A stretch of DNA of 63,266 bases, counting the filler, from Globobulimina sp. (taxonomy: Eukaryota), in NCBI GenBank assembly GCA_003354225.1. It is 15 parts of 15 records of this genome, joined end to end, with 100 filler letters (N's around TTAATTAATTAA, not from the genome) between each part and the next. Parts side by side here need not be neighbours in the genome. Positions count along the whole stretch, not along the records: positions 29,606 to 33,729 come from PIVH01001579.1; 14 more parts are not named here. The stretch is one strand, 5' to 3'. The translations under genes and the position numbers were made by a program. Below the pieces are notes generated by a model, which was not told the origin of the DNA, did not search any database, and worked only from the letters and a program-made list of their open reading frames with translations. Every line of letters begins with the position of its first letter. Within the stretch, counting starts at the first letter, position 1. Of this stretch, positions 8,467-58,792 are shown piece by piece.

Positions 8467-9640
8467 GCAAATCTTCGAGTTGTGTGAGCAAACCCAATGC
8501 CAAACCAATCACTCCACGCAAACCACCGACACATAGAATTACCCCATCTTTGACACTAATGTGATAGCCTGTTTTCTGGATTGGATACCATAATATCGCT
8601 AAAGATATGAGCCTTGATATATGGATAAAGATGTAAATCATAAATAGATACAGTATATCCTGTGCATCAATGCCTCCTTCCATCACTCCGTCGACAATAA
8701 TCATTCCACCAAATACGAAAATGAGCGTAGTTGCTATAAAGCCCAGTATCTGCCAAACGTGATGCAGAGACGACTCGATCTGCGGGGAAATGACGAGCTT
8801 GTGTTTGGACAGTACGAGTCCCAGGAATACGCATGCTAAGATCCCCGAAGCTTCAAATTCTATTTCAGCCAAAAAGAAACATAAATAACAGGCAAAGACA
8901 GTGATAGTAATTTCAATTTGATCGTCATTGAAAATTATTTTGAGCCAGCCAGCTATGGCATAGCCAAAAATTATTCCAGTGAGACATCCGACAAATGCTA
9001 ATTGAAAAAACGATGTAATCACACCGCCAACGCCAACCTCTTCACCAACAACAAATTTCAGCGCAATTACCCATAAAACATATGCAGTGCCGTCATTCAA
9101 CAAAGATTCTGCTTCGATCAATGTGGCCAATCGTTTGGATGCTCCTATTTCTCTGAGGAGACAGACCACTGCCACCGGATCTGTGGCAGAAATAATTGCT
9201 CCAAATAATAGAGATTGGGCAAACCCCCAATTATATGGAAATAAGTATTGCACGAAAACTCCGATTAATGAGCCATTGATCAGCACGCCAGGTCCCGCTA
9301 ATAATAATGCTTGGCCGAATTCCCTTGAAACTGTGTGGAAGTTGACACTGAAGGCAGATTCGAAAATTAATGCTGGGATAAAGGCACCTAATAACAAATG
9401 GGGATCGATGGACTTGACTCCTTGGATGGCGTCACCTAATCGCCCCAATTTATCTTCTACCACTCCGAGGATTAAACCTATGATTAATAAGATCACCGTG
9501 AAAGGGATTGGGAGTTTAAGAAAGCGTCTTTGTATAAATCTTGTCAGTGCTCCGATAAATAAACTGACTGCCACCAATCGAATGGCTCCAATAAAGTCAG
9601 ATTCTCCATTCGCTTCATGATCACTCATCGCGTATTGCAA
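8467..9640 (-). CDS. Na+/H+ antiporter, CPA1 family (SOS1/SLC9C-like); C-terminus cut by contig end
   Basis: Motifs IPALIFESAF, LLLAGPGV, SATDPVAVV, ESLLNDGTA, SGILA and GGLRG; many TM helices. Confidence 0.93.
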
Positions 9641-10082
9641 ACTACAGTAAAGAATAAAATTAAATTATGAGTGTCTGATGTCTATAAATATATAATTATA
9701 ATGATTGTATTGCTGTTCATCATAATTCATAAATAAATTATTAATGATTGTAAGATGTGATCATATATTATTTCTTTTCGTATATATATCTTCAAAACAC
9801 TAAGAAATCAATTCGATTTGTGTATGATATTAAATTCCAATAAGTAATTGATTTTATATTGCAAAATATATATATTGATTCGTGATGATATTGGATCAAT
9901 GATCACGGTATATATATAGACCATCAATAATGTGAAATTAGTTTACTATTAAAGTATCATAATTTTGTTTACATGAAGCCATTAAGCGTTTTTTTCTTCT
10001 GAGTGTGTGGACAGACTCAACTCCAAAACACACACACATATTTTAGATAAAGAAGTTTTATAATCGTTTTATTTTACTTTTA

Positions 10083-23384: not shown

Positions 23385-25082
23385 TCAATATTCAACAAAT
23401 ACCATGGCAACACCAAAGGGCACCAATATTATCCCAAATATAACCATTCCCAATGCAATGTATCTTTTATATTTATATGATGCTCTTTGATTCTTTTTTA
23501 ACATTTCGATTGGCAAATAATAATAAAACAACCCAGGCAAAATAAAGGCTTATTAAACAAATATAAGTTAGATCAAAAACTACAGATTACATATATTTAA
23601 GGCTAATTTAAGCAGTCTGCAGTTAATCTGTTTTTGAGCTAACCTATAATCGTAGTCCCGGTGGAGCCAACAATACCAATCACAGCTCCTAAATCATCCG
23701 TAGCCATTGCAATCACAAACGATAATAACACAATTGTCCATGTAATTAGATTATATTTCACCCAATGCAATTCCTTTGCATTTGCTACACCAAATATCAA
23801 TGAACTGAAAGAATTCCTCGCCGGATATGCTAACACCGGGTATGAAAATGCAATCGCTAATGACAAACAAATGCGACAAATTAATATCGGTATGGTTTTG
23901 GGGTATGCAGTTAACAAATTTGATGGCGCAGAAACACCAAAACTATAATATCCACTCGCAGCTACAACCATATATACGCACATACAAAACGTTTCCGATG
24001 CAATTAGTACCTTATTTAAGTTTGGTTTTGACGCTATTTGTAATTCATTAACTACACTGAATGCATTTTGATGACAGGTATATGCAAATATTATCACTGG
24101 AGCTGCTTTGAAGAACTTTAATAAATCAGTGGCACTATGGATGGGTAAAAATTCTTTTTCATTATTTCTACAAAACTTTTCAAAACGATCAGGGTCATGT
24201 TCATCGCATAAATGTAAGCCGTCAATGAAGGCATATAAAATCACAATAATTGTGGTATAGGAAAAGCATACAATGGCTGCTGTAGAAGTAAACCTCAGTT
24301 GATCCATTTTTTTAAGGCGCGCAGTTGGAATAATAAATATAATTAAAAACACTACAATCCATAATTGGCGAGATTCTAACACATCCTCCACGGTGCTCGA
24401 CTTGACTCCATGCGCGCGATTGATAATTTGTTCAGCCACATCGGGCATATAATCACCAATCACAACTAAATAGGCACAGGCCACGCCAAAACAGGTGATA
24501 CCGACAGCAAAATCAACCAAATATTTCAATTTGGGCACGGTGGCCTCGCACATGGTGAGATAGGAGACACGGAGGTTGTTCTTATTTATTTTAAGAGTGT
24601 GTGCAGCCATCATTGCTAAATGTAAGGTAATTTGAGATGTGACAGCAAAAAATAATAATAAAAAAAAGCCTAACAGCCAGCCCATATGGGTCATGGCTTC
24701 GGGCAACGTTAATATGCCGGCACCAATCACGGTATTGCATAGATTCATACATGACGAAAATATTGTGGCTGCCGGTTGGTTTAGGAATGATGACTTGCGT
24801 CTTTCTTGTTGGTGCTTACTAACGTGTACTGTATTAAATCCTGATATTACTGATGTTTTTTCGTTTCCTTGGTCGTTAGGGCTGGTATCGTGACTATCGT
24901 AATACATATGCGATGCAGACAGTAATGCTTCTTCAATAGTTGGCGAACTGGCCGGTGCTTTCGCAAGCGAGTCCATTGAATCGTATTGACTTGGTATGAC
25001 GTCACTGGCTACTTTCTTCGCTAACATTAGACTACTAAGACTAGTACCAACTGACAAAAGCTTTTTTACAGTCACTTCAGTT
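23385..25082 (-). CDS. Amino-acid transporter (Aa_trans, SLC38/AVT-like); 5' exon missing
   Basis: NLCNTVIGAGILTLP, FAYTCHQN, AFSYPV and GIVGST. An intron at about 23549-23644 leads to the last exon FILPGLFY..VEY*. Confidence 0.92.
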
Positions 25083-25120
25083 CTAGTTTGTAATTTACTT
25101 TTTTTTTTTATCGAAATCAG

Positions 25121-25279
25121 AGAAACATTTTCAGAAACGTTTTTCAGGAACATTTTCAGAAACATTTTAATTTCCAGGACATTTTCAGAAACATTTTTAG
25201 AACATTTTCAGAAACGTTTTTCAGGAACATTTTCAGAAACATTTTAATTTCCAGGACATTTTCAGAAACATTTTTAGAA
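25121..25279. repeat. Minisatellite of 12-13-bp ACATTTTCAGAA variants with a 77-bp higher-order period
   Basis: Block AACATTTTCAGAAACGTTTTTCAGG recurs at 25124 and 25201 and runs into the contig end. It sits upstream of a splice acceptor of the transporter gene. Confidence 0.92.
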
Positions 25280-29605: not shown

Positions 29606-29754
29606 TACTCTTTCGGTAGGAGAACGCCAACTCCTTTCCTTTGCCCGGGCTCTAGCGTTTGATCCGAGTATCCTGATTCTGGATGAGGCCACCAGTTCGG
29701 TGGATTCGGAGATCGAAGCCCAGATCGAAAGGGCCACCGACGAGGTCATGAAAG
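29606..29754 (+). CDS. Fragment of a bacterial ABC transporter ATPase (chimeric contig end)
   Basis: [42 protein letters not shown] contains the ABC signature, Walker B and D-loop. Confidence 0.9.
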
Positions 29755-30800
29755 TGATGAATTCCTCCACATTGACGGCGCCTCGTTCTTCGGTGTCAAT
29801 CCATTTGAAGACATCGTCCAATTCGCCTTCGCCAAGCATGCTATTATCGATATTCAAGGCGCGAAACACGGAACTCACCAACAATCGATCCAAATGGCGC
29901 GTGTTCTCCAAATCCACTTCCTCCCATATCGCAGTCACCGTATTCTCGTGGTCCTTCTACAGAAATATCAATATTTCGTGTGCTTTGTAAGTGATATATC
30001 CGTCAAATAAAAACAAAATATATCTATGTTTTAACTGTGAATTTATATCGATTCTTATAGCGAACGCGCAATGGCCGGATATCTGGCGAATTGCGAGGCG
30101 TTTCTTTGACTAAATTGGTGCCATAGCGTGCCTCCAACCATTCGCCCTCCTCATCCACAAAGACGCGAGTGACCAGGCCCCGCATCCACTTCTTTCTGCC
30201 GCGCGAATAAACTTCGACGCGCGAACCCCGCACCCACGAATTGCGAATTTGTATGTCGATGTCGTTTTGACTCATGTCGTCCAATGATTTGTTGGAGTTT
30301 GTGTTTGGTAGCGAGTTCAAAAGAGGTCCGCCATCGCTACGGATAGTGGCAGTGGCCGTTAATTTCACATTGTTCATATTTAATCCTTTGTGGATGGCGG
30401 ATTGTTGATGTTGCTGCGGTGGCGGTGGTTTAGTTGCATTCGTTTTGACCGGACGTATGGCGGATTTGTCATCGCGAGGGATTTGCTTTAATCGCATCAC
30501 TTTACCGCAGGCATATTGCACTTCTAACCATTCGCCTTCAGGGTCGACGAATATACGCGTTATGTCGCCTTCGTACCATTTCCTTTTGCTGCTGCTGTAT
30601 ACTTCTACTTTGGAGCCGACTTTCCATTGTTTGCGCTTCATGGCATCGGTGACCAGCATGGAGGATGAAGTGTTGTTGTAGTTGTTGTTGGATGGTAAGA
30701 GATTCGAGTTTGCGCCAAATTGGTTATGGTTTGGTTGGGGTGGATTTTTTTGACGTAAATTTCGAAAGGAGCCTTTAGCGACTCTAGGTTGACTATACAT
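29740..30800 (-). CDS. Protein with two Agenet/Tudor-like repeats plus an EF-hand pair; truncated by the chimera
   Basis: Repeats [25 protein letters not shown] and [25 protein letters not shown]. The downstream exon has EF-hand-like loops DLENTRHLD and [13 protein letters not shown]. Exact splice sites were not resolved. Confidence 0.7.
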
Positions 30801-30925
30801 TGCTGTTTGTAGCTATAAACTGGTATTCTGGTTTGTGTTTGTTACGTAATTCAATTAAATTGAACCCATTTACATTAGTTTAGTTTGGATAATGATTTTT
30901 TAAAATAAAAGCACGACTTTACTTA

Positions 30926-33138
30926 ATGTCTTCTCCTTCTCTATCAAGTACAGCGACACAAATGTGTTTCATGGCATTAGGATTCGTTTGTTTAGAGGGT
31001 GGTTATGTTCAGCACGAATATATCCAGACATTAATAATCAAAAATTTACAAAATATTATTTTTGGCTTTGTAATTTATGTCATTTTTGGCTATGCTTTCA
31101 GCGTTCGAAACTATGAATACATCGCATTATACAATTTACCATATTCGGAGTGGGATACAGTATTTACAAATGCAGCATTCTCGGTAACCGCAGCAACAAT
31201 TATGAGCAGCGCCATATTAGAAAGAATGAGAAATGTGGCATATTCGTTGTGGGTCTGTTTAATAATTTTAATAAATTTTTCCATTGTTAGTAGTTGGATA
31301 TGGCATACAGACGGATGGTTATTCAAATTAGGTTTCGTTGACTGTGCCGGTGCAGCTGTTGTGCACATGACGGGAGGTATTGGTGGTTTGATGCTATGCG
31401 CGTTTTTAGGACCCAGATATTCCTCGTTATCATCTATTATGAGCGACCCGTTGGACCAAAACACTAAACGTTTAAAAGCGAAGCATCGGCCCAGAAATTT
31501 ATTAATAATGTTTATGGGAACATTAATATTATGGTTTGCTTGGATAGGGTTCAATACATCATCGCCAATTTTTGGTCTAGTCGGTGATCCACACATTGTT
31601 TTGCCCGGATTGTTGACTGTGATGGTTCCCGCGATGTCCGCTACATCGACATATTTACTCAGTTATACGAAATGGCCGAATTGGAGTTGTCTTAAACAAA
31701 AAGGTATAAAACCAGGCTCGAATATATTACTAAGAAGCTCTGTTAATTTATCTCATGCAATTTTGTCTGGTTTAGCTGTTGTCACCGCATGTTGTTATAC
31801 AATAAATTTAATTTCTGCCATAATTATTGGTTTCCTTGTACCATTTCCCATATTTTGGGCATCCAGTTATTTACGGCACCATTGGTATATTGATGATCCA
31901 TTGGATACAATTCCAACACATTTACTTGGTGCAATTATTGGTTTATTAGCTGAGGGCTTATTTAGTTTTGATAATGGATTGTTGACCACAGGCGATTATA
32001 CACATTTTGCTGTGCAATGTTTGGGTATCGTTGTTACTTTGCTTTTTAATGTTGTTCTCAATTCATTTTGGTTGGTAATCTTTAGATTTGTAATATACAG
32101 AAACAAAGGCTTTAAAACAACACCGTTGTCCATCTGTTTAAGTACTTCGTCTCAAACCAATATTTATTATGAGATGGATTACGGATTGGCAATTAGAGAA
32201 TTAATGTTTGGCGATACCCAATTTACGCGTCTTTTACTAGCCACTTTTCATCGATATTTAAAGACTGTATTTTGTGAGGAACAGTTAGATTTTATCATAG
32301 CCGTCTATCGTTTCAGAAAATTGTTTGATCGTAAAACAAGTTAAAATAATACTATACAGTATCCGATATATTTATTATCTTAAAATTAAATATATTTATA
32401 TTAATCACCACAGCTTTGTCTAACACGCTTCCCAGAACAACTTCATCGACAGCTCCATCGTCGATTGCAACGCCGGCGGGACGAGCTTCACTGCCTTCAC
32501 ATACTGAAATTACTATTAATGATACTGGCGCTGATACGGAGACCGTTACACAGTCACACTCTGCATCGGACAGTGTCATTTTGAATATGAACAAAGAAAT
32601 TAAAAACGCATATAATTGTATTTGTAATGTATACATCCGAAATGGAGCAAGGCAACAAATCAATATTGATCATCGAAATAGAAATGTCATGATGGCTATT
32701 TATGATAAATCGAAAACTGCGGAAAGAATAGTTTGTGATGAAAATATCAATGAAAACGAATTATTTATTGATAATAATGAGAAGGTTGTAATTATTGAGA
32801 AAACTGTATTTAACAATGCGTTTATGACGGTAATGGGTCAAATTACAATTCATTTACGAGTATTAATGCAAAAATATCATGATGACACTCAATGGAAAAT
32901 AAAGAGAAATTCAAAACAAGATAAATATAAAGAAGAACCTTACACAGTGTTGACTGATACATATAAAATACATTGGTTTGACGATCCAGACACGGATATG
33001 CCAGAAATTTATAACCATGGCCATCATAGCGGACAAGCATCAATTTCACGCTCTCATAAAAGAAAAGAATCATATATTGAAGCACATTCTGGCAGAGTCA
33101 AATGTGTTGAAGAGCATATTGATGATATTTTACACTAA
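30926..33138 (+). CDS. Ammonium transporter (Amt/Mep/Rh) fused to a C-terminal RGS domain, 712 aa
   Basis: Amt motifs ATIMSSAILER, WIW..GWL, DCAG..VVH, LGPR, WFAWIGFN and DDPLD..PTH. In-phase intron 32340-32413. RGS motifs FHRYLKTVFCEEQLDFIIAVYRF ... ICNVYIRNGARQQINI ... VFNNAF. Confidence 0.88.
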
Positions 33139-33574
33139 ATAATTTATTAATTATCTCCCCATCGTATTATATTATTTATATATATAGATATTACTAAATA
33201 ATTAATTATATTTATACTATTTTTGCCACTCTACTCTTTTTTGATTGTTTGTTAAGATTATTGTGCATTATTACTTATATTTTGAATAATAATTTTAATG
33301 GACTTGCAGAGTCATCGATATATTATGTTTTTCATTTTGCTTATCCAAAAATTGAATAGCCAATCCGTGTAATTTTGTGTACACCAAATCTAAGAGGCAA
33401 CATATTAATTAATGTCTCGATCTTGTTGGTGGTTGATATTCCAAGACGACGACATGAAAAACTTGAGTTGACAAACAGAAAAGCAGTCAAATCAGCATGT
33501 CAGATGATTTTGGTGACGTTTACATTAGTTTAGTTTGGATAATGATTTTTTAAAATAAAACACGACTTCAGTTA

Positions 33575-33729
33575 ATGTCTTCTCCTTCTCTATCAAGTAC
33601 AGCGACACAAATGTGTTTCATGGCATTGGGATTCGTTTGTTTAGAGGGTGGTTATGTTCAGCACGAATATATCCAGACATTAATAATCAAAAATTTACAA
33701 AATATTATTTTTGGCTTTGTAATTTATGT
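33575..33729 (+). CDS. 5' end of a second, near-identical Amt gene copy (tandem duplicate, cut by contig end)
   Basis: Same first 51 aa as the 30926 gene with one synonymous change seen. About 55 bp of upstream sequence is also shared (33519 vs 30868). Confidence 0.9.
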
Positions 33730-33972
33730 NNNNNNNNNNNNNNNNNNNNNNNNNNNNNNNNNNNNNNNNNNNNTTAATTAATTAANNNNNNNNNNNNNNN
33801 NNNNNNNNNNNNNNNNNNNNNNNNNNNNNAATTTAATGGATGTCATTCATTCCTATTTTATCCATTCAGTTGACATTGGATTTAATATTGTAAACGATCT
33901 AAATATAAATATAAAGAATGAGAATGAGAATAATATTTATTATGATAATATTTATTATGATATGGTAATTAT

Positions 33973-36900
33973 TTGAACCCAAAAGCAGTTCCATTTATTC
34001 CCAGTGAAACATTGGTATCTCGTTACTGTGGAACTGATAATAAATATGATGCAGATATTGAAATGGATGAAACTAAAATTAATGACATGAACACTGTACC
34101 ATACCACGACCATTTTATTATTGACAGGACTCGAACAGTCTATGTTTGTCCCATTACAGACTGTGACAAACACCGCAACATTGATCACAGAATGTCATTT
34201 ATCGATTATTGGGTAAACAGACACATAAATAGCAAGAAACCTGTTAGATTCTATGGATTTGCTAAGAAGGCACAATTAAAAACACATTTAACCAAATTTC
34301 ATTTATTAGGTAACCCGAGCTCAATCCCTACAAAATATTTAATAAAAAATAATTATAATATTTGCAGAATTTGCAGCAAATTTTGCAAACGCACTACAGA
34401 CGCTCATCCAGGATGCACTCAGAAAGAAAATCAAATTTCTGTTTTGCCAGAATCATTAGTTCCATTCCAAAATGTTACATTAACAGAGATTCAGGCATTG
34501 CGACCGAAATTATTATTTGATATCCCTCAGTCGTGTCGAACATTATTTGCTGACATTTTGAGCCAAATTTTGGAATCATTGGCCAATAATAATGAAGACC
34601 ACGATTTTAACTTTAAATTGTATCATGTTTTTAGTAAAATGGTTTTATTAAAGCCACCTAAGCGTGGTGGCAAAAGTAAATATATGCAACGAGCGAAATT
34701 ATGTAAAATACGCTTGAAGCTGTTTCGTGACAAAAAATATGACTTATTATGGACACATTTATTGGATCACATGCAAATACTCACAAATTTGACACAGAAA
34801 CGTTCGAAACAACAACGAACTCAGTCAGCAGCAAATCGGATCGTAACCAATCGCCGCAGAGCGGTTAATTATGTACGCGAAGGAGACCTAAGCCGAGCGG
34901 CTTCAGCTCTGACCACCAACGGTATGGCACCTTGGACGGATAGAATTGTTCAACAAATGGTTGATAAGCATCCAACACAACAGCCGCCGGATATTTCTAT
35001 ATTTGACACGGATAATTTACCAGAAATTGATTTATTATCAGGTGAAGTCCACAAAACTTGCCTCAAACAGCAAAAATTTGGTGGTCCGGGTCCCAACCTT
35101 TTGCGCCCATATCATATCAGACAATGTGCGCGTAGTTATAACGGACGCAAATTGTCTAAAAGCATCGCAAAATTTGGCAGATATTTATTCAATGGACAAT
35201 TTCCGCTGCATTTAGGCAAATATTTCGCCGCGTCATCTTTGTTCGCATTATGGAAAAATAATAAATTGACAGATGCGAGACCCATCGCTTCCGGCGACGT
35301 TATTGACCGCATTGTCAGCCGGACAGTTATGAGAAACAAACGAGCGGAATGGAGGGAAATATTGGAACCAGAACAAGTTTGTTTATCTGAACGCGGCACA
35401 GAAAAATGTATCTTTGCCTGTGCGCATGCGATTGCTGCCAACGCAAACAATAAAAATTGGGTATTAGTAATGGTTGACATTAAAAATGCCTATAACACCG
35501 GAGACAGACAAATTAAATTATTAGCAACAAGCAAATATGCCCCAGAATTATTACACTTTGAGTTATTAAAATATAACGACAGTATCCCATTATATTTATC
35601 AAATGGTGATATTATTCAATCTCAGGCTGGTGGCAAACAGGGAGATACTTTGGCTGCTTTAAATCACGGTTTCTTTGATAAACATTTGATAGATTCTATT
35701 AGGAATAAAGAAATGTATAATGACTTATTAAATATTGCATATGCAGATGACCGACAGTTCGGTGCCGATTTAGAAACTGCAGCGGAGTTTTACAAAGAAT
35801 CAAAAACGAGTTTAGGTGCTGCGGGCAGTGAATATAAATCAAGCAAATGTACTATTTTTGTGCACCCAGAAAACACATTTATTAACCATGATGTTACGGA
35901 GTTAAATGAGGAAAAGGCCGAAAAATTGAGGAATAAAAAAATCAGAGAAATGTTCGGTGATTCAGATATTAAAATTACATACGGATTTAATATGGAATTA
36001 CTCGGAGCATTTTTAGGGAGTAACGATTATATCAAATCAAAAATTAATAAAAAAATTAAAGATTTACAATATTTAATGGATCAAGCTGCAGCATTGGAAG
36101 ACACCCAATCCGCTGCATTATTATTATCAAATTGTTTTGACGCGTGTCGTATGACCCATATCATACGTACGACTCATCCAAATATTATTATTGAAGCATT
36201 GAAAGATTTTGATTACTCTTTGAAAAACTCATTTGAACGGATTTTTGGTAAATCATTTACGGACTTTGAATTTATGGAATTATGCTTAGGTATTAAGGAA
36301 GGCGGACATGGAGTACGCACTATTGAAGATATTTCAATCGCGGCTTATCTGGGTTCCTATGCTCAAGCAATACCATACTTACAGACCATTGGTGATAAAA
36401 TTCATTGCGATTTATTATCTAATTATTTGTTCGATGATTTTGTCAAACTCAAACAACAATTTTGCGACAATTATAATGTGAATATTGATAAGTTAAGCGA
36501 CAACTTATTATTACAACAAGACACATTATCGGAATATATTAAGGAATTTAGATTAAATATATATGAATCAAATTTAGTCTCAGCAATTGATAAAAGTCGT
36601 CATTCAACGGCTAAAGCCCCTTACGCGGGAGCTTGGATTCGCGCAAAACCAACGCGCCCAGCAACATTGCTGCCGTCAATATCATACAAGCTAGCTACCT
36701 ATCAAAGATATGGGTGGCCAATTTTTAACTGGAATTTTGACGACAAAACTTGTACTGATTGCGATAAGGAAATGGATAAATATGGCACACATTGTATAAA
36801 TTGTGGAAGTAAAGACGGTGTTTTCACGTATACTCACAATAAAGTGCGTGATTGCATTGCTAACTATGCGAAGAGAGCTGGCTTTTTAGTTGAAAAGGAA

Positions 36901-37329
36901 AAGCCGGGTTTATTGGATTCTGGTGCGAAACCAGCGGATATTTATTTTTATAACTATTTACGTGGACAGGATTATGCTTTTGATGTTACGGTGGTATCAC
37001 CGTATAAATTAAACTCATTGGCAGACACTATACGTTTTCCGTGTATGTCAGCCGATAACGCCATTCGGAACAAATATAAAAAATATAGCAAAGATATCGA
37101 ATCGGTTCATTGGAAATTCCAACCGATTGCATTTGAGAGAAGTGGAGGGTGGAGTTTGCCCGCCCAACTACTTATTAAGAGGATCTCCAAACAATTTGGA
37201 TCGAAATATAATATCAATGAAAACATTATAATAAATTCAATCATTTCGGAGATAAGCTGTATACTCCTAAAAAGCACAGCATATATGATTGCAAAACGGA
37301 AGGTTGATAATGGCCCATCGGATTTATAA
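33973..37329 (+). mobile_element. Non-LTR retrotransposon with restriction-like endonuclease (CRE-like), single open ORF of 1118 aa
   Basis: N-terminal Zn-finger-like CPITDC..HLTKFH. RT: RPIASGD, DIKNAYN, QGDTLA, AYADD, ELLGAFLG. CTDC..HCINC knuckle and HNKVRD. RLE: KPADI..DVTV..KYKKY..PIAFERSGGW. Confidence 0.93.
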
Positions 37330-38052: not shown

Positions 38053-39430
38053 GGGCGCCTTATTGGAGGCAGCAGAGAAGGTATTATTTATTTATTTATT
38101 TATTTATTATATTAAGCCTTGCACTTATTATTTTATTTTCTTTTATTTTCTTTTCTTTTCTTTTATTTAGCTATTATCGAAAGGTATTCATCCAATTCGT
38201 ATAGCACAAGGCTTTGAGAATGCGTGCGACGAAGCCGTGCGACATTTAAAATGCATATCGGACGAAGTGGAAGTATCTCGAGATAATGCATCCAATTTAT
38301 ATGCAACAGCGGAGACCACGATAAGCAGTAAGATAGTGAATAAGTTTCGCGTTGAAATATCTCGTATCGCAGTGGATGCGGTATTAAGTGTGACCGATTG
38401 GGATAGGAAAGATGTTAACTTTGAGCATATCAAAATCGAGGGAAAAGTAGGCGGCAAATTATCGGACACGTGTTTAGTGCATGGCATCATCATAGATAAA
38501 GAATTTAGTCATCCACAAATGTGCAAATCCATAAAAAATGCACGCATCGCAATCTTAACCTGTCCGTTTGAACCACCACGGCCTAAAACAAAATATAATA
38601 TTGATATCACCACAAGTGAGCAATATATGCAATTGCATGAAATTGAGCAAAAATATTTTAATGATATGATTTGTCACATCATTGATAGCGGCGCAAATGT
38701 GGCCTTTTGTCAATGGGGGTTTGATGATGAAGCAAATCATTTATTATTACAAAAGAGGTTACCCGCCGTCCGATGGATTGGTGGCGTCGAATTGGAGTTA
38801 ATTGCAATGGCCACTGGTGGACACATTGTACCTCGTTTTAAGGAATTAAGCAGTAATAAATTAGGTAAATGTGGTTCAATTCGAACCTTAGAGTTTGGCA
38901 CAACAAAAGATCGAATGTTAGTAATCGAAGAATGTCCAAATTCATCCGCAGTGACAATATTTATACGTGGCGGTAATAAAATGATTGTTGAAGAAGCAAA
39001 GCGTAGTATCCATGACGCTTTGTGTGTGACAAGGAATTTAATTAAAAATTCTCATATCGTATATGGTGGTGGTTCCTGCGAGATATCGACTGCTAATTTT
39101 ATTCGCGAGAAAGCAAATAAAATTGAGAATATGGATCAATATTCCTATCGAGCATTTGCTAATGCTTTAGAGTCAATTCCTATTGCATTGGCTGAGAATT
39201 CTGGTTTATCACCAATTGAATGTGTTGCACAAGCCAATAAATTACAAATTCAACAACAAAATCATTATATTGGTATTGATTGTATGTGTACGGGGCAAAC
39301 CGATATGAAAAAAGCAAAGGTTTATGAGACATTGACTGGCAAACAACAGGCCTATCTTTTAGCCACTCAAGTCGTCAAAATGATACTTAAAATTGATGAT
39401 GTTATGAAACCTTCCGACATTGGCTATTGA
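38053..39430 (+). CDS. CCT5: T-complex protein 1 subunit epsilon (5' partial)
   Basis: GALLEAAEK, intron 38081-38170, then [46 protein letters not shown] and MILKIDD. Confidence 0.97.
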
Positions 39431-42943: not shown

Positions 42944-45900
42944 TTATTTTGTGGTTATATCAACAATATGCATAATATTGCATGCATTACCAATAATAAA
43001 TAAAATAAACCCAGAAACTAACAACAGCACAGCACCAATCCGATCGAACCAAAAAGTCCAACTTTGGTTCACCTTTTCCAATGTTTTAATCCTTTGCATT
43101 TTTTCTGCTTTCAATTGTGTTTCAACTTTCTCCTGAATCGTTTTACTCGCTTCCCGCAAGTTATATGTTTTTGACTGAGATACAAATGTTTGCGAGACAG
43201 ACACCACCGACACTTCCCGCTTTTTATTATTCTTATCCACATTCTTTGACTTTGACCTCTCCATTCGATCATTCTTAGCTTTATTCAATTTGTGATACTT
43301 TGAACTTTGTCCCCACCATTTTGACTTCCTCTCTTTACTCTGACTTTTTTTATGTTTTTTCCTCTTCAAACTGCCGCCTTCATAGCTTCCATAGCTTCCA
43401 AGTACACCGCTTTCCTCTTCCACATTACAGTTATATTTATGTTTGGTGTGCGATGAAAACGAGACGTACTCCGAATACCCATCAACGCCATGCAATTTAT
43501 TGCCGGTACTACTCACAAGCTCGTCCAGTTCCGGTGTCCGCGAATCCGGAGTCGGCGACGCGGATTTTGATGAATGGTCGCTCAGCTTACTAATATTATA
43601 TTTTTCTTCCATTTCCGCATCAAAGGTCGAGCTCGACGCTGATTCTTCGTCGTCAATGGCTATCAACACAGATTTTTTGCACGACCCCGTACCGTATAAC
43701 CTCGAATGCGACTCAATAATGACATGATTCCACGAATCGGGCGTCATGATATTTGGTAGCAACCCGTCGTTTGTGTTGAATATTTTATTTGTAAGCTGCG
43801 AGCCGGATAATAAGGAAGATTTATTGTCCACATCGCTTTGATTTCGGTCGTTGACGGTCCGCGCATAGTTCATCAACGGCGGCGTAGCTGTGGCAATGAT
43901 CGAGTTTAATGTCGACTGTGCGTTCAAATTATATTTGGATAAATGTGGGGCAATCACATCACTGCTGTTATTGTGGTGATACTCCATCATGGCAGTCACA
44001 AAAGTTTGCGACGGGAATATAATAATATTCCAAAACAACAATCCCGGCAAAATTAGACACAAAATAGTGGCAAATATGGCGCCGCTCCACGCAAATAACA
44101 CCGCCAAATCCTTGATAAACAATGCAATGATTAATGCAAATACGCTCACAAAAAAGGTCAGCAATATATGCTGCGTAATCGTGTTCTGCTGCGGATGATT
44201 TGTGAATATTAAGACCGACATTGAATGCCGAGACGGTTCCAGCACAGTGGGATAAAACAAAAACATTGCTATGCCAATAATTATCATAGCGCTTAATATA
44301 TAGAGATTGTCCACTTTGTCTTTTAAATTCAAAACCACGTTGGTTTCCACTGTTGGATTGTTGCTGAAATAGAAATATCCGCAACTGCCTAATATCAATA
44401 TATAGATTGTATGCTGTATGAGCGCGCCATGTGCGATTTGGTTCAGTTTGGGCCGGTTCTCCGAGGATAGTTTCTCGTGCACTTTGAACAGTTCACAGTG
44501 TGTGGTCAACGCGTATAAAATGATGGGATATCCGAGCGACAATGAATAAAAGTTAGAGAGCAAAGTCTGACTCTCATCAATGTAGATTCCAATATGAATG
44601 CCCTCTGAGTCGAAGGAGATGTTTTCATTGCTATCATCGTCGCAGAATCTGTCCATGCAAGCTAAGGTGATGGCGAATAAAAAGGAAATCATACATATAT
44701 TGTACAGCGTGTCTCGCAGTCTATTCATATTTCGAGGGCGCTCTCGGCGACGTCTCCGCTGTTTCAGCTTAAACCGCTGTAAATGCGCCGGTTTGTCCTT
44801 GAATGATAGCGGCAGCAATATGAACAATGTGACAATCACCAACAAAAAGGAGCGATTGGCCAGGAACGAATGGGATAAATGATCGGCAAACACAGGTTGG
44901 ATTAGGTCCGCTAAGGCGATCAGAATGGCAATGCATTGTGTGAAACAATAACCAAATATTATAATGTTGATGAACAAGACTCCGCATTTATTTTTTAGAT
45001 ACAATATGGTTAACTGCTGTATGGAGCGCACACCGGTACATTTCTGACATTGTAGCAACAATCGCATAGATAATAGTTGTAACAGTACAATTACTGCGAT
45101 CACGATAAAGCCGTAAAGCCATCCGCATAAAGAGAAGACATACGGTATACACAACACACTGCATCCGAGCGTGGAGGCGGACAAATTGCACAACACTGCG
45201 CCGATGGAGCCATATTCAAAGAAGAAAAAGTAGGATTTGGGCTGTTTTTTATGTCTCCGCATTTTCTGTCTGTTTATAACAAACAACAAACAACAGAAAC
45301 ATGTGAATATTAATATGTTTCTGCAGTATTAAATCATCGCAAAATATAGCATACCGTGCCCGTATTACTTCTTTTCTATCCTTTTCAGCTCTGCGTATTT
45401 TCTCAAACGAGTCATCGGATACAATGTCCAATTGATAGTCTTCTTCGTTTAGTCTCTTTGTGATGGCGTTATACAGATTTTTGCTGTTTGTGATGCTTTT
45501 GGATAAATCGGTGGCGATGGACGACTTCATCGCCAATCTATCCTTGGGATTAATATAGCGAAATTTCGGATTGTTTGTCAATATTTCTTTGCCTAATTTG
45601 CTTAAATAATGGATTTTATTGCTGTGCAAGCTTGATTTGGAAACATTTATTTTGCCATAAAATAAGGTGTTATCACTGCTGTAGCCGTCATTGGCTGTGG
45701 CTTCATCTTCTAATAAAAATACGGAGGCACGCAATACATCGTCGTCCTCGGGCAACGAACAGCTCTCTGTCAACAATGGCTTCTCTTTGCTTTTATTCAC
45801 CGCTCTCTTCTTACTCTTACTTGTTTGTTGGGCGTTGGTCGATGGCCTCGCTGGCTTCTTAGATGAGGCACGTTTGGCTGTTTTGGCAGCTTGGCTCTGC

Positions 45901-54930: not shown

Positions 54931-56022
54931 GGCCATTCCCCACCAAAAAATGGTCAGAAAACACCTCTCAAATCTCCAAAAATTGCTTCCTCCTCTGCTT
55001 TGACTAAAGACGATCAATTGATAAGTGATGAAAAGGACTCTGAGACATTATGTGATAACTGTTCTGGACCCACGGACAATGATTCCATTGGTTGCTTTAT
55101 TTGTGCCTCAAATTGGCAATGTACTGAATGTATAAAACGTCATTTGGGAATCTCAGCAAAAACTCAATTTAAATCCACTTGCAAACAATTGAAGAAGGAA
55201 GGACTTAATGGATCTTGGCAATTTATTTGTACTCAATGTCGACCAAAATTACGTCAATTTAGTGCTACATTATTAAAAGGTACAAAACAGTCGATTTTAT
55301 CTGTTACCCCTGATCCTGTTATTGTCTCAACACTGGACCAGAAATTGGAAACCCTTCAATCTACAGTCAATCAACTGGCCCAACAGATGGTAACTGTGCA
55401 ACAATCACTTAAACCTTCCCTCTCATTTGCTGAAGCTGTCAAAAACAAACATGGTCCTATTATTCCTAAATCGTCTTTCATTAATGATAACAAAATGCAA
55501 CCACCTGTGCCAGTCAAACAACAGGTTGTCACTATTGACCAAATGGAACGCGAACACTTTGAAAGACAAAACCGAGCTAAAAACATTGTCATATCTGGTC
55601 CTGAAATCGACAAAAACTCTGATGAACAGTTAGTTATGCAAATTTTTGAACAAATCAATGTAAATTATAATGCTCATGTTCATCATGTCCAAACAGAACA
55701 ATATAAATCTGGTCAAATTCGTCTTGTAGTCACTCTCGATTCCAATGAAAGCAGAGACATTATTATGAAAGAAAAACGTCATTTGAAAGATTGTGATGGA
55801 TTTTCGGATTATTACATTAATGTCCATTTGACCCCTCTCCAAGCCAAAGAACAATTTGAACTGCGTCAACAACTTAAAGAAAAGGTCTCTAACAGGCGGG
55901 AGGATGGGGCTAGACGATTCTTCATCGACTATAAAAGAATGCGAATCCGGAGTCACAAAATCACCATCGACAATGCAGGCTCTCCTACTCAATGCGCAAA
56001 GCCTGCGGAACAAGAAATATAA
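54931..56022 (+). CDS. LINE ORF1 (PHD-like finger, coiled coil, nucleic-acid chaperone)
   Basis: CDNC..IGCFIC..C..FICTQC, SFAEAV, RAKNIVISG and YINVHLT. The frame is open to the contig start. Confidence 0.85.
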   Translation, partial: GHSPPKNGQKTPLKSPKIASSSALTKDDQLISDEKDSETLCDNCSGPTDNDSIGCFICASNWQCTECIKRHLGISAKTQFKSTCKQLKKEGLNGSWQFICTQCRPKLRQFSATLLKGTKQSILSVTPDPVIVSTLDQKLETLQSTVNQLAQQMVTVQQSLKPSLSFAEAVKNKHGPIIPKSSFINDNKMQPPVPVKQQVVTIDQMEREHFERQNRAKNIVISGPEIDKNSDEQLVMQIFEQINVNYNAHVHHVQTEQYKSGQIRLVVTLDSNESRDIIMKEKRHLKDCDGFSDYYINVHLTPLQAKEQFELRQQLKEKVSNRREDGARRFFIDYKRMRIRSHKITIDNAGSPTQCAKPAEQEI

Positions 56023-58792
56023 ATTTGAAACTCAAGTGTTATCTACAACCAAACCTAATCTAGTCGCTGTTTGTGAAACTTGGTTTAATTCTGACGAAAG
56101 TTTAAACATTTTACCTAATATGTTCCATGACTACATTGCAGTTAGAAAAGACAGAACTAACATTGGAGGAGGAGTTTTGTTATTATTTGATCAATCATTA
56201 TTTCCTGTATCTGTTACATGTTCAATTGATGCTGAAGTTGTCTGTGCAGATCTACATTACTGTCAACCACCACTACGTGTTATATGTGCCTACCTTCCCA
56301 GCCGTCAACCTGAACTGGCCAACAACCTAAAAGATGCATTACGTGAGTTAATTATCCCAGAACGTCCTATACTATTGTTAGGTGATTTGAACCTGCCACA
56401 TATTGACTGGCCCTCTTTGACAGCAAGCAATGGTGATAGAATAGAAAATGATCTAGCTGACTTTTTTGCTCATTATGGCCTTATTCAAACTGTCAATCAA
56501 TCTACTCATGTACGAGGTAATATATTAGATGTTGTCTTATGTAATGAGCCATATATGGTATTGGAAGCCATTCCCGATCCTGCGGCAGCCATTTCTGACC
56601 ATTTTCCAGTCAGAATAGAATTAGCCCTTAAGCCAACACAACAAGTTGAAAAACCACCTCGGCCTCAATGGGACAAAGCCGATTATGATATTATTAGAGC
56701 ATATTATGCAACAATTGACTGGGATTTAGAACTTAATTCATGCCAAAATGTTGAAGAAATGTGGTCTAAATTCAATTCTCATTTCGAATACATATTGTCT
56801 GAAGGTTATGTCCCTTTCTCAGCTATGAAAAAGAAACGAGCTCCATGGATTAACACCAAAATAGAAAGGCTAATTAAAAAACGACAAAAACGTTGGCGAT
56901 CATACAACAAAGACATAAATAATTGCCATAAACTTGCTGCCTACCAAGAAGCTGACCGAGTTACAAAGAAAGAAATCGAACAAGCAAGGAAACACTATGA
57001 AGACAAAAAATTATCCAATCTGAAGCATGGTCCAAAGTCGTTTTTTGGCTTTGTCAATCGATCATTAAAATATCGTCAATCAATCCCACCCTTGAAGCAA
57101 AATAATGGAATAGCTGTGTCAGATTTTGACAAAACAGAAGCACTCAATAATGCATTTTCTAAGAATTTTAGTCATGACGATGGCAAGCATCCCCCTCTGC
57201 GAGCTTCTCCAGTCAACAGTTTCCTATCCGATGTCCATTTTAATGCCAATATGATATGTCAAGAACTACGTAGATTTAAACCTGATTCAGCCCCCGGACC
57301 TGATGGCATCCACCCTCGATTCTGCCGCGAAATTGCATCACTAATTTCTTATCCATTGTCTATTATATTTACAAAATCCATGAATGACTGTCAAATACCA
57401 AATGATTGGAAAATTGCCAATATTACACCTATATTCAAAGGAAAAGGAAGTACCTCCGACCCAAATGGTTATCGACCCATATCATTGACTAGTATTATTG
57501 CAAGAGTAATGGAATCGATTATACGTACTTCATTATTAGACCATTTACTATCAAACCATTTGATCTCCCGCCATCAACATGGATTCCTATCAAAAAGATC
57601 GACTCAGACACAATTACTTGAATGTCTTAATGATTGGACTAAGGCGCTGGATGAACGTAAGAAAATTGATGCAATTTATCTCGATTTAGCTAGAGCATTT
57701 GACAGTGTGTGCCATTCAAAACTGCAAATGAAACTCGAAGCCTATGGCATACAGAACAACCTCCTTATGTGGCTGAAGAATTTTCTCCAAGGTAGGAAAC
57801 AATGTACTGTATTAAATGGAGTATCATCATCATGGACTAATGTTATATCGGGTGTGCCCCAGGGGACAATTCTGGGCCCAATCCTATTCAACTTGTTCAT
57901 AAATGATGCAGTGAATCAAATCAGCCCTGGTGGTACATTAAAACTATATGCAGATGATTCCAAATTATACCGCATTGTCACTGGCCCTCCTGATGTTCAT
58001 AAACAACAACAGGACTTACTTGCACTTGAACAATGGACCACACTATGGCAATTACATTTCAATGCGGAAAAATGTTCTGTGCTTCAAATGTCTAATCATC
58101 AAGAACCCAATGACTACTACTTGTCTGGAATGGTACTAAAACCCAGCATTATGGAAAAAGACCTTGGAGTCTACATTCAAAATGATTTAAAATCACACGA
58201 ACACTGTAAACAAGCTGCAGCTAATGCCACAAAAATAGCCATGTCAATCAAAAGAACGTTCAGTCACCGACATGAAACTGGATTATTTAAACGTCTATAT
58301 TGTACATATGTGCGTCCCCACCTAGAATACTGCAGTACTGTATGGTCACCTCAAACAAAAATGGATGCGGACCTTATTGAAAAGGTTCAACGACGATTCA
58401 CAAAATATATTCCAGCTTTGATTGGTCTCACTTACCCTGAACGACTAAAAAGACTTCAAATTCCAACTCTAGAAGAACGCCGATTAATAGCCGATCTATG
58501 CCAGGTATACAAAATCTACAATGGACTTGACACTTTAATTTTCAATGAATTTTTTATTAAAAACGAAAATCATACAAGAGGCCATAATTTCAAATTATGC
58601 AAAGAAAGACCAAATTGCTGTACAAGGGCCAATTATTTCTCTGTCAGAATAGTCGACTCATGGAATGCTCTTCCTCCAGAAGTTGTTGGAGCAAGATCAC
58701 TTGCTGTTTTCAAACAGATGCTTGGGAAAATCAATTTATATGATTTGAATGGTGGAAACTGGCGTGTTGGATCTGCAACCTATTTGCTATAA
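55973..58792 (+). CDS. LINE ORF2: APE endonuclease plus reverse transcriptase
   Basis: NAQSL, VCETW, GDLN, ILD, SDH, PGPDGI, YRPISLTS, DLARAFD, GVPQG, YADD, EKDLGV and YVRPHLEYC. Confidence 0.96.
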   Translation: MQALLLNAQSLRNKKYKFETQVLSTTKPNLVAVCETWFNSDESLNILPNMFHDYIAVRKDRTNIGGGVLLLFDQSLFPVSVTCSIDAEVVCADLHYCQPPLRVICAYLPSRQPELANNLKDALRELIIPERPILLLGDLNLPHIDWPSLTASNGDRIENDLADFFAHYGLIQTVNQSTHVRGNILDVVLCNEPYMVLEAIPDPAAAISDHFPVRIELALKPTQQVEKPPRPQWDKADYDIIRAYYATIDWDLELNSCQNVEEMWSKFNSHFEYILSEGYVPFSAMKKKRAPWINTKIERLIKKRQKRWRSYNKDINNCHKLAAYQEADRVTKKEIEQARKHYEDKKLSNLKHGPKSFFGFVNRSLKYRQSIPPLKQNNGIAVSDFDKTEALNNAFSKNFSHDDGKHPPLRASPVNSFLSDVHFNANMICQELRRFKPDSAPGPDGIHPRFCREIASLISYPLSIIFTKSMNDCQIPNDWKIANITPIFKGKGSTSDPNGYRPISLTSIIARVMESIIRTSLLDHLLSNHLISRHQHGFLSKRSTQTQLLECLNDWTKALDERKKIDAIYLDLARAFDSVCHSKLQMKLEAYGIQNNLLMWLKNFLQGRKQCTVLNGVSSSWTNVISGVPQGTILGPILFNLFINDAVNQISPGGTLKLYADDSKLYRIVTGPPDVHKQQQDLLALEQWTTLWQLHFNAEKCSVLQMSNHQEPNDYYLSGMVLKPSIMEKDLGVYIQNDLKSHEHCKQAAANATKIAMSIKRTFSHRHETGLFKRLYCTYVRPHLEYCSTVWSPQTKMDADLIEKVQRRFTKYIPALIGLTYPERLKRLQIPTLEERRLIADLCQVYKIYNGLDTLIFNEFFIKNENHTRGHNFKLCKERPNCCTRANYFSVRIVDSWNALPPEVVGARSLAVFKQMLGKINLYDLNGGNWRVGSATYLL

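Follow-up and report, generated by a model that had tools for sequence, protein, structure and literature searches.

An Amt-family membrane domain joined to a divergent RGS-like tail in Globobulimina, a candidate ammonium receptor with a G-protein output

How a signal passes into the cell from Amt/Mep ammonium 'transceptors' is a long-standing open question, and the members of this family in fungi and plants have no attached output domain through which it could travel. A gene of Globobulimina sp. (GenBank assembly GCA_003354225.1) raises the question of whether such a domain can be part of the protein itself. The window, meaning the whole stretch of DNA analysed here, has 63,266 nucleotides in 15 parts from 15 records, joined end to end with 100 filler letters between neighbouring parts; the gene occupies 30926..33138 on the plus strand, within the part taken from PIVH01001579.1 (positions 29,606 to 33,729). 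It encodes an Amt-family domain followed in the same polypeptide by a tail that resembles, divergently, the regulator of G-protein signalling (RGS) domain. Our tentative reading, which we hold at somewhat less than an even chance, is that an ammonium-binding membrane domain of the Amt family has been combined with a divergent cytosolic RGS-homology domain, and that ammonium occupancy would act through it on a G-protein alpha subunit (G-alpha). Three elements of that reading we only infer: the coupling to ammonium, the binding of G-alpha or GTPase-activating protein (GAP) activity on it, and the direction of signalling.

Does the locus encode one protein? Two open reading frames (ORFs), 30896..32344 and 32350..33138, lie on the plus strand in different frames, with the first ATG at 30926. 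Splicing out an intron of 74 nt with GT..AG ends (32340..32413) joins coding exon 1 (30926..32339; codons 1–471 and the first base of codon 472, comprising the Amt domain, a linker and the first RGS-like part) to coding exon 2 (32414..33138; the rest of codon 472 to codon 712, with the stop TAA at 33136–33138), giving a coding sequence of 2139 nt or 712 codons. If the intron is retained, an in-frame TAA at 32342–32344 ends the reading frame and the product is 472 residues long. Four public runs (X1, X4, X6 and X7) were compared with the window over 30850–33200. A 2546-nt contig of X1, probably the source run, is identical to the window sequence and carries the intron. In X4, which comes from another study and an organism at least 99% alike (organism B), a 1655-nt contig (record 9) lies on 31325–32339 and 32414–33053, its joint skipping 74 nt with GT..AG ends. 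X6 and X7, from a third study and an organism about 95% alike (organism C), join 32337 to 32414 with two letters between, a skip of 76 nt, in two X6 contigs and in X7 record 20 (2061 nt); given the two intervening letters, this joint equals removal of the 74 nt with two changed bases. Depth in the intron bin is 3.28 in X4, 4.66 in X6 and 4.3 in X7, which is 16/79 of the adjacent depth; the bin holds 16 bases of exon 2, and these explain the remaining depth, so that X4, X6 and X7 are all free of contigs that carry the intron. For these three runs the library kind is not on record, RNA being a guess for X6 and X7, and no RNA data set is listed among the 9 sequencing runs; the joined form is therefore either mRNA or an intron-less copy, and in both cases the two frames read as one. 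The original prediction of a single 712-residue gene with a 74-nt intron is thus borne out, the 32339/32414 junction being crossed by contigs of X4, X6 and X7 from two studies.

The gene of organism C shows how this sequence has been allowed to change. Its indels within the coding sequence are, per contig, +3, −6 and −6 or +6 and −6, with sums that are multiples of three, and the sole +2 indel falls 3′ of the stop codon. The sites are 32436, 32445 and 32548–32556, in what we call insert 1 below, and a His/Gly/Ser stretch near residue 672. Of 37 listed substitutions, 25 are synonymous, 27 are at codon position 3 and 34 are in exon 1; this count covers the listed part, 109 further rows from all runs standing outside it. 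Since the indels keep the frame and the change is mostly synonymous, the gene is intact, and purifying selection acts on its Amt part at least. The GC content at third codon positions (GC3) of exon 1 and of exon 2 fits that of the other genes of the window.

The membrane domain spans residues 13–387 (30962..32086, plus strand, as are all parts of the gene), as placed by Pfam, PDB alignments and hydropathy. The Pfam family Ammonium_transp (PF00909) matches it with E = 1.4e-52 and 179.2 bits against a cut-off of 23.2, covering profile positions 10–373 of 399. A crude window method finds about 11 hydropathy peaks, none of them past residue 392, and the established topology of the family puts the C-terminus of an Amt protein in the cytosol. 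When aligned with HMMER to Sd-Amt1 and Ks-Amt5, and in a 40-row alignment, the protein keeps the twin His (H147/H332), the Phe gate (F85/F209), W126, D139 and S213; the His pair, Phe gate, Trp and Asp that had been named at the outset are all in place in both. In organism B, codon 208 has TCG for GGG (31547–31548), a change of Gly to Ser in the highly conserved W-x-G-F-N motif beside the Phe gate. The canonical Amt C-terminal region (profile positions 374–399) is without a match in the Pfam alignment. The last membrane segment is followed instead by a linker of 24 residues (393–416; 32102..32173) and then by the RGS-like domain, which thus appears to stand where that region has been lost, the Pfam match ending at position 373 of 399.

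The Amt domain has diverged very far: of 39 relatives found, the best is 29–30% identical, in a search that scored the 8000 candidates with the most words in common with the query. A fused signalling domain is present in 20 of the 39, namely P-II in 15, a histidine kinase in 2 and a methyl-accepting chemotaxis protein domain in 3. Among PDB sequences, 11 matched at E <= 1e-10, headed by 6EU6 (E = 3.2e-25) and 8QJ3/8QPF (about 2e-22), with fungal Mep2 next (4e-18 to 1e-12). The first is Ks-Amt5, which is fused to a histidine kinase, and the second Sd-Amt1, which is fused to a HAMP-diguanylate cyclase; both are Amt-like ammonium receptors that bind ammonium at internal sites N1 and N2 and do not conduct it (PMC5764959, PMC11152129). 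The published signature of such receptors is QX6EX15NX2D[F/T]X54-60TX2[S/T] (PMC11152129), and the full set of signature residues occurs in 22 of the 39 relatives, with a Tyr-type pattern in 5. The window protein retains the N1 ligands E24, N40, T91 and S94, together with the switching Lys K39 and F20. Judged by its aligned residues, the domain is clearly of the receptor/AMT1 type and not of the AmtB/Mep2 type.

What is attached to this domain? The tail (residues 417–712) starts within exon 1, so a single exon encodes the passage from the Amt domain into the tail, for which no splicing is needed. Its RGS-like N part, with the motif FHRYLKTVFCEEQLDF, covers residues 417–471 (32174..32338) and rests on matches in Pfam and PDB. 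Insert 1 (residues 472–528; 32339..32583) spans the intron and is 21% Thr and 19% Ser, hence 40% Ser plus Thr. The RGS-like middle part (residues 529–568; 32584..32703; ICNVYIRNGARQQINIDH) includes N555 and was placed by a profile alignment to RGS16 and by the Pfam envelope of a relative, P0040, which reaches profile position 82. Then come insert 2 (residues 569–601; 32704..32802), rich in E, N, K and I and different in length from that of P0040, and a putative RGS-like C part (residues 602–632; 32803..32895; VFNNAF...LRVLMQK), placed by eye only. The C-terminal region (residues 633–712; 32896..33135) has an acidic patch, WFDDPDTD, and its last 22 residues are 50% identical to P0040. Together the three RGS-like pieces make 126 residues, against 117 positions in the Pfam model, and their identity to P0040 is 62, 38 and 35% in order, versus 18% in insert 1 and 27% in insert 2.

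Pfam scans were made separately on exon 1, on its last 69 residues, on exon 2 and on P0040. For the last 69 residues of exon 1, RGS is the top family (E = 0.008, 17.0 bits, profile 12–40 of 117); exon 1 as a whole matches it at E = 0.18 and 12.7 bits. Against PDB at E <= 10, all 15 matches of the 69-residue piece are R4-type RGS proteins (RGS16, RGS2, RGS18, RGS8, RGS3, RGS5 and RGS4), the best being RGS16 (E = 0.0035) over the FxxFLKxEFSEENLEFW helix pair. A two-species profile made from P0040 and two window pieces found RGS proteins in seven of eight PDB matches, with a best E of 8.9e-4, and aligned with RGS16 in two collinear pieces: profile 22–61 with RGS16 24–63, and profile 99–121 with RGS16 65–87. 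In RGS16 these pieces lie side by side; here about 37 profile positions, containing the Ser/Thr-rich insert, keep them apart. Over the second stretch the window residues are identical to RGS16 at 10 of 23 positions, NIDH included, and N555 of QINID aligns with the Asn of RGS16 EVNID and is kept in P0040. We take N555 to be the G-alpha-contacting Asn of the alpha5–alpha6 loop, N128 in RGS4.

P0040 itself (302 residues, E = 3.4e-8) was the only relative found when exon 2 was compared with 1.84 billion representatives; it is the sole member of its cluster and comes from a JGI contig of 1084 nt. The protein reads without a break through the site at which the window gene has its intron, and it shares the closing C-terminal motif of the window protein, an independent sign that both halves of the tail belong to one polypeptide. 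In Pfam its first family is RGS (E = 0.03, 15.1 bits, residues 25–136 on profile 15–82), and when residues 1–225 were compared with the ESM Atlas the top three clusters were RGS (0.87, 0.86 and 0.85; 178 shared features). We conclude that the tail is probably, and with a good deal to spare, a homologue of RGS in three pieces that two variable inserts separate. The chance that it has kept an action on a G-alpha we place well below even.

The original prediction had described an RGS box that is split by a Ser/Thr-rich insert, keeps the Asn of QIN and lacks the terminal DSxxRF motif. The insert lies where it was said to be, at residues 472–528 between the two pieces that match RGS16 collinearly; the Asn is N555, and no DSxxRF motif is present in the tail. 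The predicted architecture stands, an Amt membrane domain running on in one reading frame into an RGS-like tail. The name RGS box survives in part: RGS is the top Pfam family for the exon-1 tail and for P0040, and every score is below the Pfam cut-off, with no RGS match for exon 2 by itself.

If the tail does act as an RGS domain, the Amt trimer would hold three such domains at the membrane, each 24 residues from its last segment. Ammonium occupancy of the pore would then alter the position or availability of the RGS-like domains, and with it the GTPase rate of G-alpha, while the Ser/Thr-rich loop would offer a plausible phosphorylation target as an extra layer of control. The level of ammonium could in this way set G-protein activity without a seven-transmembrane (7TM) receptor, much as the original prediction supposed. 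Both halves of the scheme have precedents. Where plants, Trichomonas and Naegleria rely on a self-activating G-alpha, regulation falls on RGS proteins tethered to the membrane (PMC9283941), and in the Amt receptors of bacteria the occupancy of the pore is signalled to a transducer at the C-terminus (PMC11152129). A bolder form of the proposal, which we think rather unlikely, would make the protein the first ammonium receptor of a eukaryote whose G-protein output is built in. An Amt trimer would replace the 7TM bundle of 7TM-RGS proteins, binding in the pore would switch the GAP activity or availability of the RGS domains, and a nutrient would directly raise or lower the activity of a self-activating G-alpha without any G-protein-coupled receptor (GPCR).

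Several observations weigh against a working RGS domain and, with it, against the proposed route. The cut-off of Pfam RGS (PF00615; 23.9 bits) is never reached, the scores being 12.7, 17.0 and, for P0040, 15.1 bits, and a single stretch of about 30 residues supplies most of the signal. Taken alone, exon 2 has no RGS match in Pfam, PDB sequences or the ESM Atlas: its PDB matches are three Cmr4 chains at E >= 1.6, its ESM Atlas matches, to hypothetical and C2 clusters, share no more than 116 features, and its top Pfam match is C5orf34_C (E = 0.0019, 18.4 bits, cut-off 27) at 32569–32679 (exon 2 residues 52–88), which overlies the stretch aligned to RGS16. We set an identity with C5orf34_C aside, as P0040 does not reproduce the match. 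P0040 alone matched in PDB only a kinesin, at E = 0.2; it starts at a Met that corresponds to M417 and so, on its 1084-nt contig, is known as a tail alone. The loop that reads SEEN in RGS16 is CEEQ in the window protein (Ser replaced by C450, Asn by Q453) and CLEQ in P0040, only the second Glu (E452) being kept in both; we take this loop to be S85, E87 and N88 of RGS4, which contact G-alpha in the RGS4–Gi-alpha-1 structure. For the missing DSxxRF-type motif only a loose HLRVLMQK can be placed by eye, and the third piece to which it belongs was aligned to RGS by none of Pfam, PDB, the profile or the ESM Atlas. Structure prediction gave no confident fold. The AlphaFold model of exon 2 alone has a mean predicted local distance difference test (pLDDT) score of 30.9, and that of P0040 with a 3-row alignment one of 40.6; the latter, low-confidence model is all-helical over 1–56, 85–141 and 167–209, with gaps at the inserts, and a Foldseek search with it found no PDB match at E <= 0.001, a result that is meaningless at such model confidence. 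A complex prediction of the two RGS-like halves (55 and 104 residues) scored 0.22 against a mark of 0.34, in a comparison without controls.

Such observations are also what one would meet if the tail were what is left of a decayed RGS domain, or a helical stretch with no more than a likeness to RGS, serving as a lineage-specific regulatory, trafficking or phosphorylation tail on a fast-evolving transporter. Here the sub-threshold scores, the competing C5orf34_C match, the lack of a confident fold and Q453 in place of the loop Asn all speak for that explanation, as does the faster divergence of the tail in organism C, where record 20 has 49 other letters in 747, versus 58 in 1257 for the Amt part. 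Against it, three different types of search rank RGS first, and the second collinear piece matches the segment of RGS16 that lies next to the first. The C5orf34_C match is absent in P0040, in which conservation is concentrated in the RGS-like pieces. On balance we consider this explanation unlikely, yet weighty enough to be carried along. The fusion might, thirdly, be an artefact or a dead gene, produced by a misjoining of neighbouring genes or by rearrangement beside a retroelement. A copy of at least 211 nt of the gene's 5′ end, 2650 nt downstream and directly before a reverse-transcriptase ORF, means that the region has been rearranged. Nevertheless, the Amt domain and the best RGS-like piece share one uninterrupted exon, contigs of two studies cross the intron in frame, and the frame of organism C is kept through four indel sites with mostly synonymous change. 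GC3 of both exons is that of the window genes, and the conservation shared with P0040 reaches the very end of the tail. This makes an artefact or a dead gene exceedingly improbable and close to refuted.

On the Amt side, the proposal that the protein is a receptor has its own difficulties. The strict signature is absent, the window protein reading A17-X6-E24-X15-N40-X2-N43-I44-X46-T91-X2-S94: A17 stands for the Gln, N43 for the N2 Asp, I44 follows it, and the spacer has 46 residues versus 54–60. A maximum-likelihood tree leaves the domain unplaced, at the end of a very long branch (3.0 changes per site). The N1/N2-type region is likewise conserved in AtAMT1;1, a true transporter (PMC13745463), and residues of this type therefore cannot separate a sensor from a transporter. 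The signal might accordingly run the other way, with the protein a working ammonium transporter and the RGS-like tail its input: a partner such as G-alpha-GTP would open or plug the cytoplasmic exit of the pore, much as P-II/GlnK proteins, free or fused, gate bacterial Amt channels. Every pore residue needed for conduction is kept, Amt–P-II fusions make up 15 of the 39 nearest Amt relatives found, N1/N2-type residues occur in AtAMT1;1, and the tail may have taken over the role of the autoregulatory Amt C-terminal region that is unmatched here. On the other side, our literature search gave no precedent for an RGS domain that gates a transporter, the closest solved relatives bind ammonium and do not conduct it (PMC11152129), and the exit position is occupied by a bulky His, H277, where transporters have Ser and Sd-Amt1 has Asn-269. 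None of these points is decisive, and a transporter gated through its tail fits the data equally well in several respects; overall we regard it as improbable.

How widespread is this protein? Among 3635 candidates there was no longer relative of P0040, and metagenomes scanned for P0040 peptide patterns, and again for a degenerate pattern of a shared 10-residue motif, yielded no locus. Organism C has a further contig of 1621 nt (X7 record 21, at higher depth; also in X6) that matches the gene only at 31112–31165 and 31914–31961, with equal spacing and diverged sequence between. It indicates a diverged Amt paralogue, recognizable from its Amt stretches alone. The family thus looks narrow, comprising the window organism (A), the near-identical B, C at about 95%, the Amt paralogue of C, and P0040.

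By sequence comparison the host belongs to a sparsely sampled protist lineage: for the TCP-1 epsilon exon of the window (38171–39430), identity is 88% with a EukProt protein and 83% with an MMETSP/JGI transcript, and it falls to 60–65% with animals and oomycetes that carry names. That bacteria passed on the Amt domain by horizontal transfer, as its bacterial best matches suggested, was considered and set aside; nothing supports it, the long branch being unplaced and GC3 matching that of the host genes. The window is AT-rich, with a GC content of 0.28–0.45, and contains genes for TCP-1, a DNA ligase, PIP5K, a PI3/PI4 kinase, two amino-acid transporters and a Na/H exchanger, as well as two reverse-transcriptase ORFs. 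The Na/H exchanger and the two Aa_trans genes lie at 8470–9664, 23639–25207 and 42944–45328, all on the minus strand, and make with the Amt gene four solute carriers in 63 kb. Upstream of the gene is a divergent 262-residue ORF (30024–30812, minus strand) with two internal repeats and no Pfam family. Minus-strand contigs of X4 and X7 end at 30883, 43 nt from the Amt start codon, which points to a very short shared intergenic region. Downstream, the copy of the 5′ end occupies 33519–33729 and comprises 57 nt before the ATG and at least the first 52 codons at 96–100% identity, running into an N run at 33730–33773; it is followed by a 1122-residue ORF (33961–37329) with a weak reverse-transcriptase match (RVT_1, E = 2e-6). 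Either a tandem copy has been disrupted here, or a retroelement has picked up the promoter and 5′ end; both are possible origins. The second reverse-transcriptase ORF (986 residues, 55832–58792) combines an endonuclease/exonuclease/phosphatase domain with a reverse transcriptase (RVT_1, E = 1.1e-28) and is a LINE-like non-LTR retrotransposon. Runs of 44 N form fourteen pairs, with 12 bases between the two runs of each pair, which recur every 4228 nt or so (for example 33730–33773 and 33786–33829) and cut several ORFs; their strict regularity means that they are not assembly gaps, and presumably they are masks.

A full-text literature search found no description of an Amt–RGS fusion, the domain chart of eukaryotic Amt proteins in Fig. 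7B of PMC11152129 and the architectures in InterPro lying outside that search. The supplements of the same paper comprise a structure model and a PDF, and the term 'RGS' is absent from the PDF. The earlier statement that no characterised fusion of this kind is known agrees with this search. With a candidate output domain covalently attached, a route for ammonium signalling becomes directly testable. Should the proposed route be correct, the bacterial design of an Amt pore with a fused transducer would extend to eukaryotes, and the logic of plants and many protists in which a regulated RGS protein replaces a GPCR would not be tied to 7TM receptors. Should the tail be inert, the finding would shrink to a fast-evolving transporter with a lineage-specific tail.

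Among known systems, the 7TM-RGS proteins (AtRGS1 of Arabidopsis, 28 proteins of Naegleria fowleri and those of Trichomonas) share with the plan proposed for the window protein the order of a membrane sensor module and a cytosolic C-terminal RGS domain; they are GAPs on self-activating G-alpha, and the RGS protein, not a GPCR, is the regulated step (PMC9283941). The window protein is not a member of this family, its membrane module being an Amt domain of about 11 predicted segments, presumably trimeric, with no 7TM module, and its RGS-like domain is far more divergent and has two inserts. R4-type RGS proteins, for their part, are small and soluble with an uninterrupted domain of about 120 residues, whereas the tail described here has two inserts, Q for the loop Asn and no DSxxRF motif. 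Fungal Mep2 belongs to the Amt family too and has been proposed to inform development pathways of the ammonium supply (PMC4852598, PMC6837285, PMC7048316); it falls in a cluster without the N1/N2 ligands (PMC11152129). No signalling domain is fused to it, and the route downstream of it is still debated; in the window protein an output-like domain is covalently attached. The bacterial Amt–P-II (GlnB) fusions, which are the top-scoring relatives at 28–29% identity, combine an Amt domain with a C-terminal nitrogen-signalling domain; the fused domain there is P-II, a channel regulator, and here it is RGS-like. Closest in design are Ks-Amt5 (Amt-histidine kinase, 6EU6) and Sd-Amt1 (Amt-HAMP-diguanylate cyclase, 8QJ3/8QJ4/8QPF), which likewise have an intact Amt pore and a C-terminal fusion; the window protein differs from them in its eukaryotic host, its RGS-like output module, an identity of about 30% and its departures from the receptor signature. 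A conserved tail of 320 residues is fused in frame to the Amt domain, and its role as a transducer hangs on the RGS assignment. The route proposed for ammonium would parallel both the glucose-responsive 7TM-RGS proteins of plants and protists and the Amt-kinase and Amt-cyclase receptors of bacteria.

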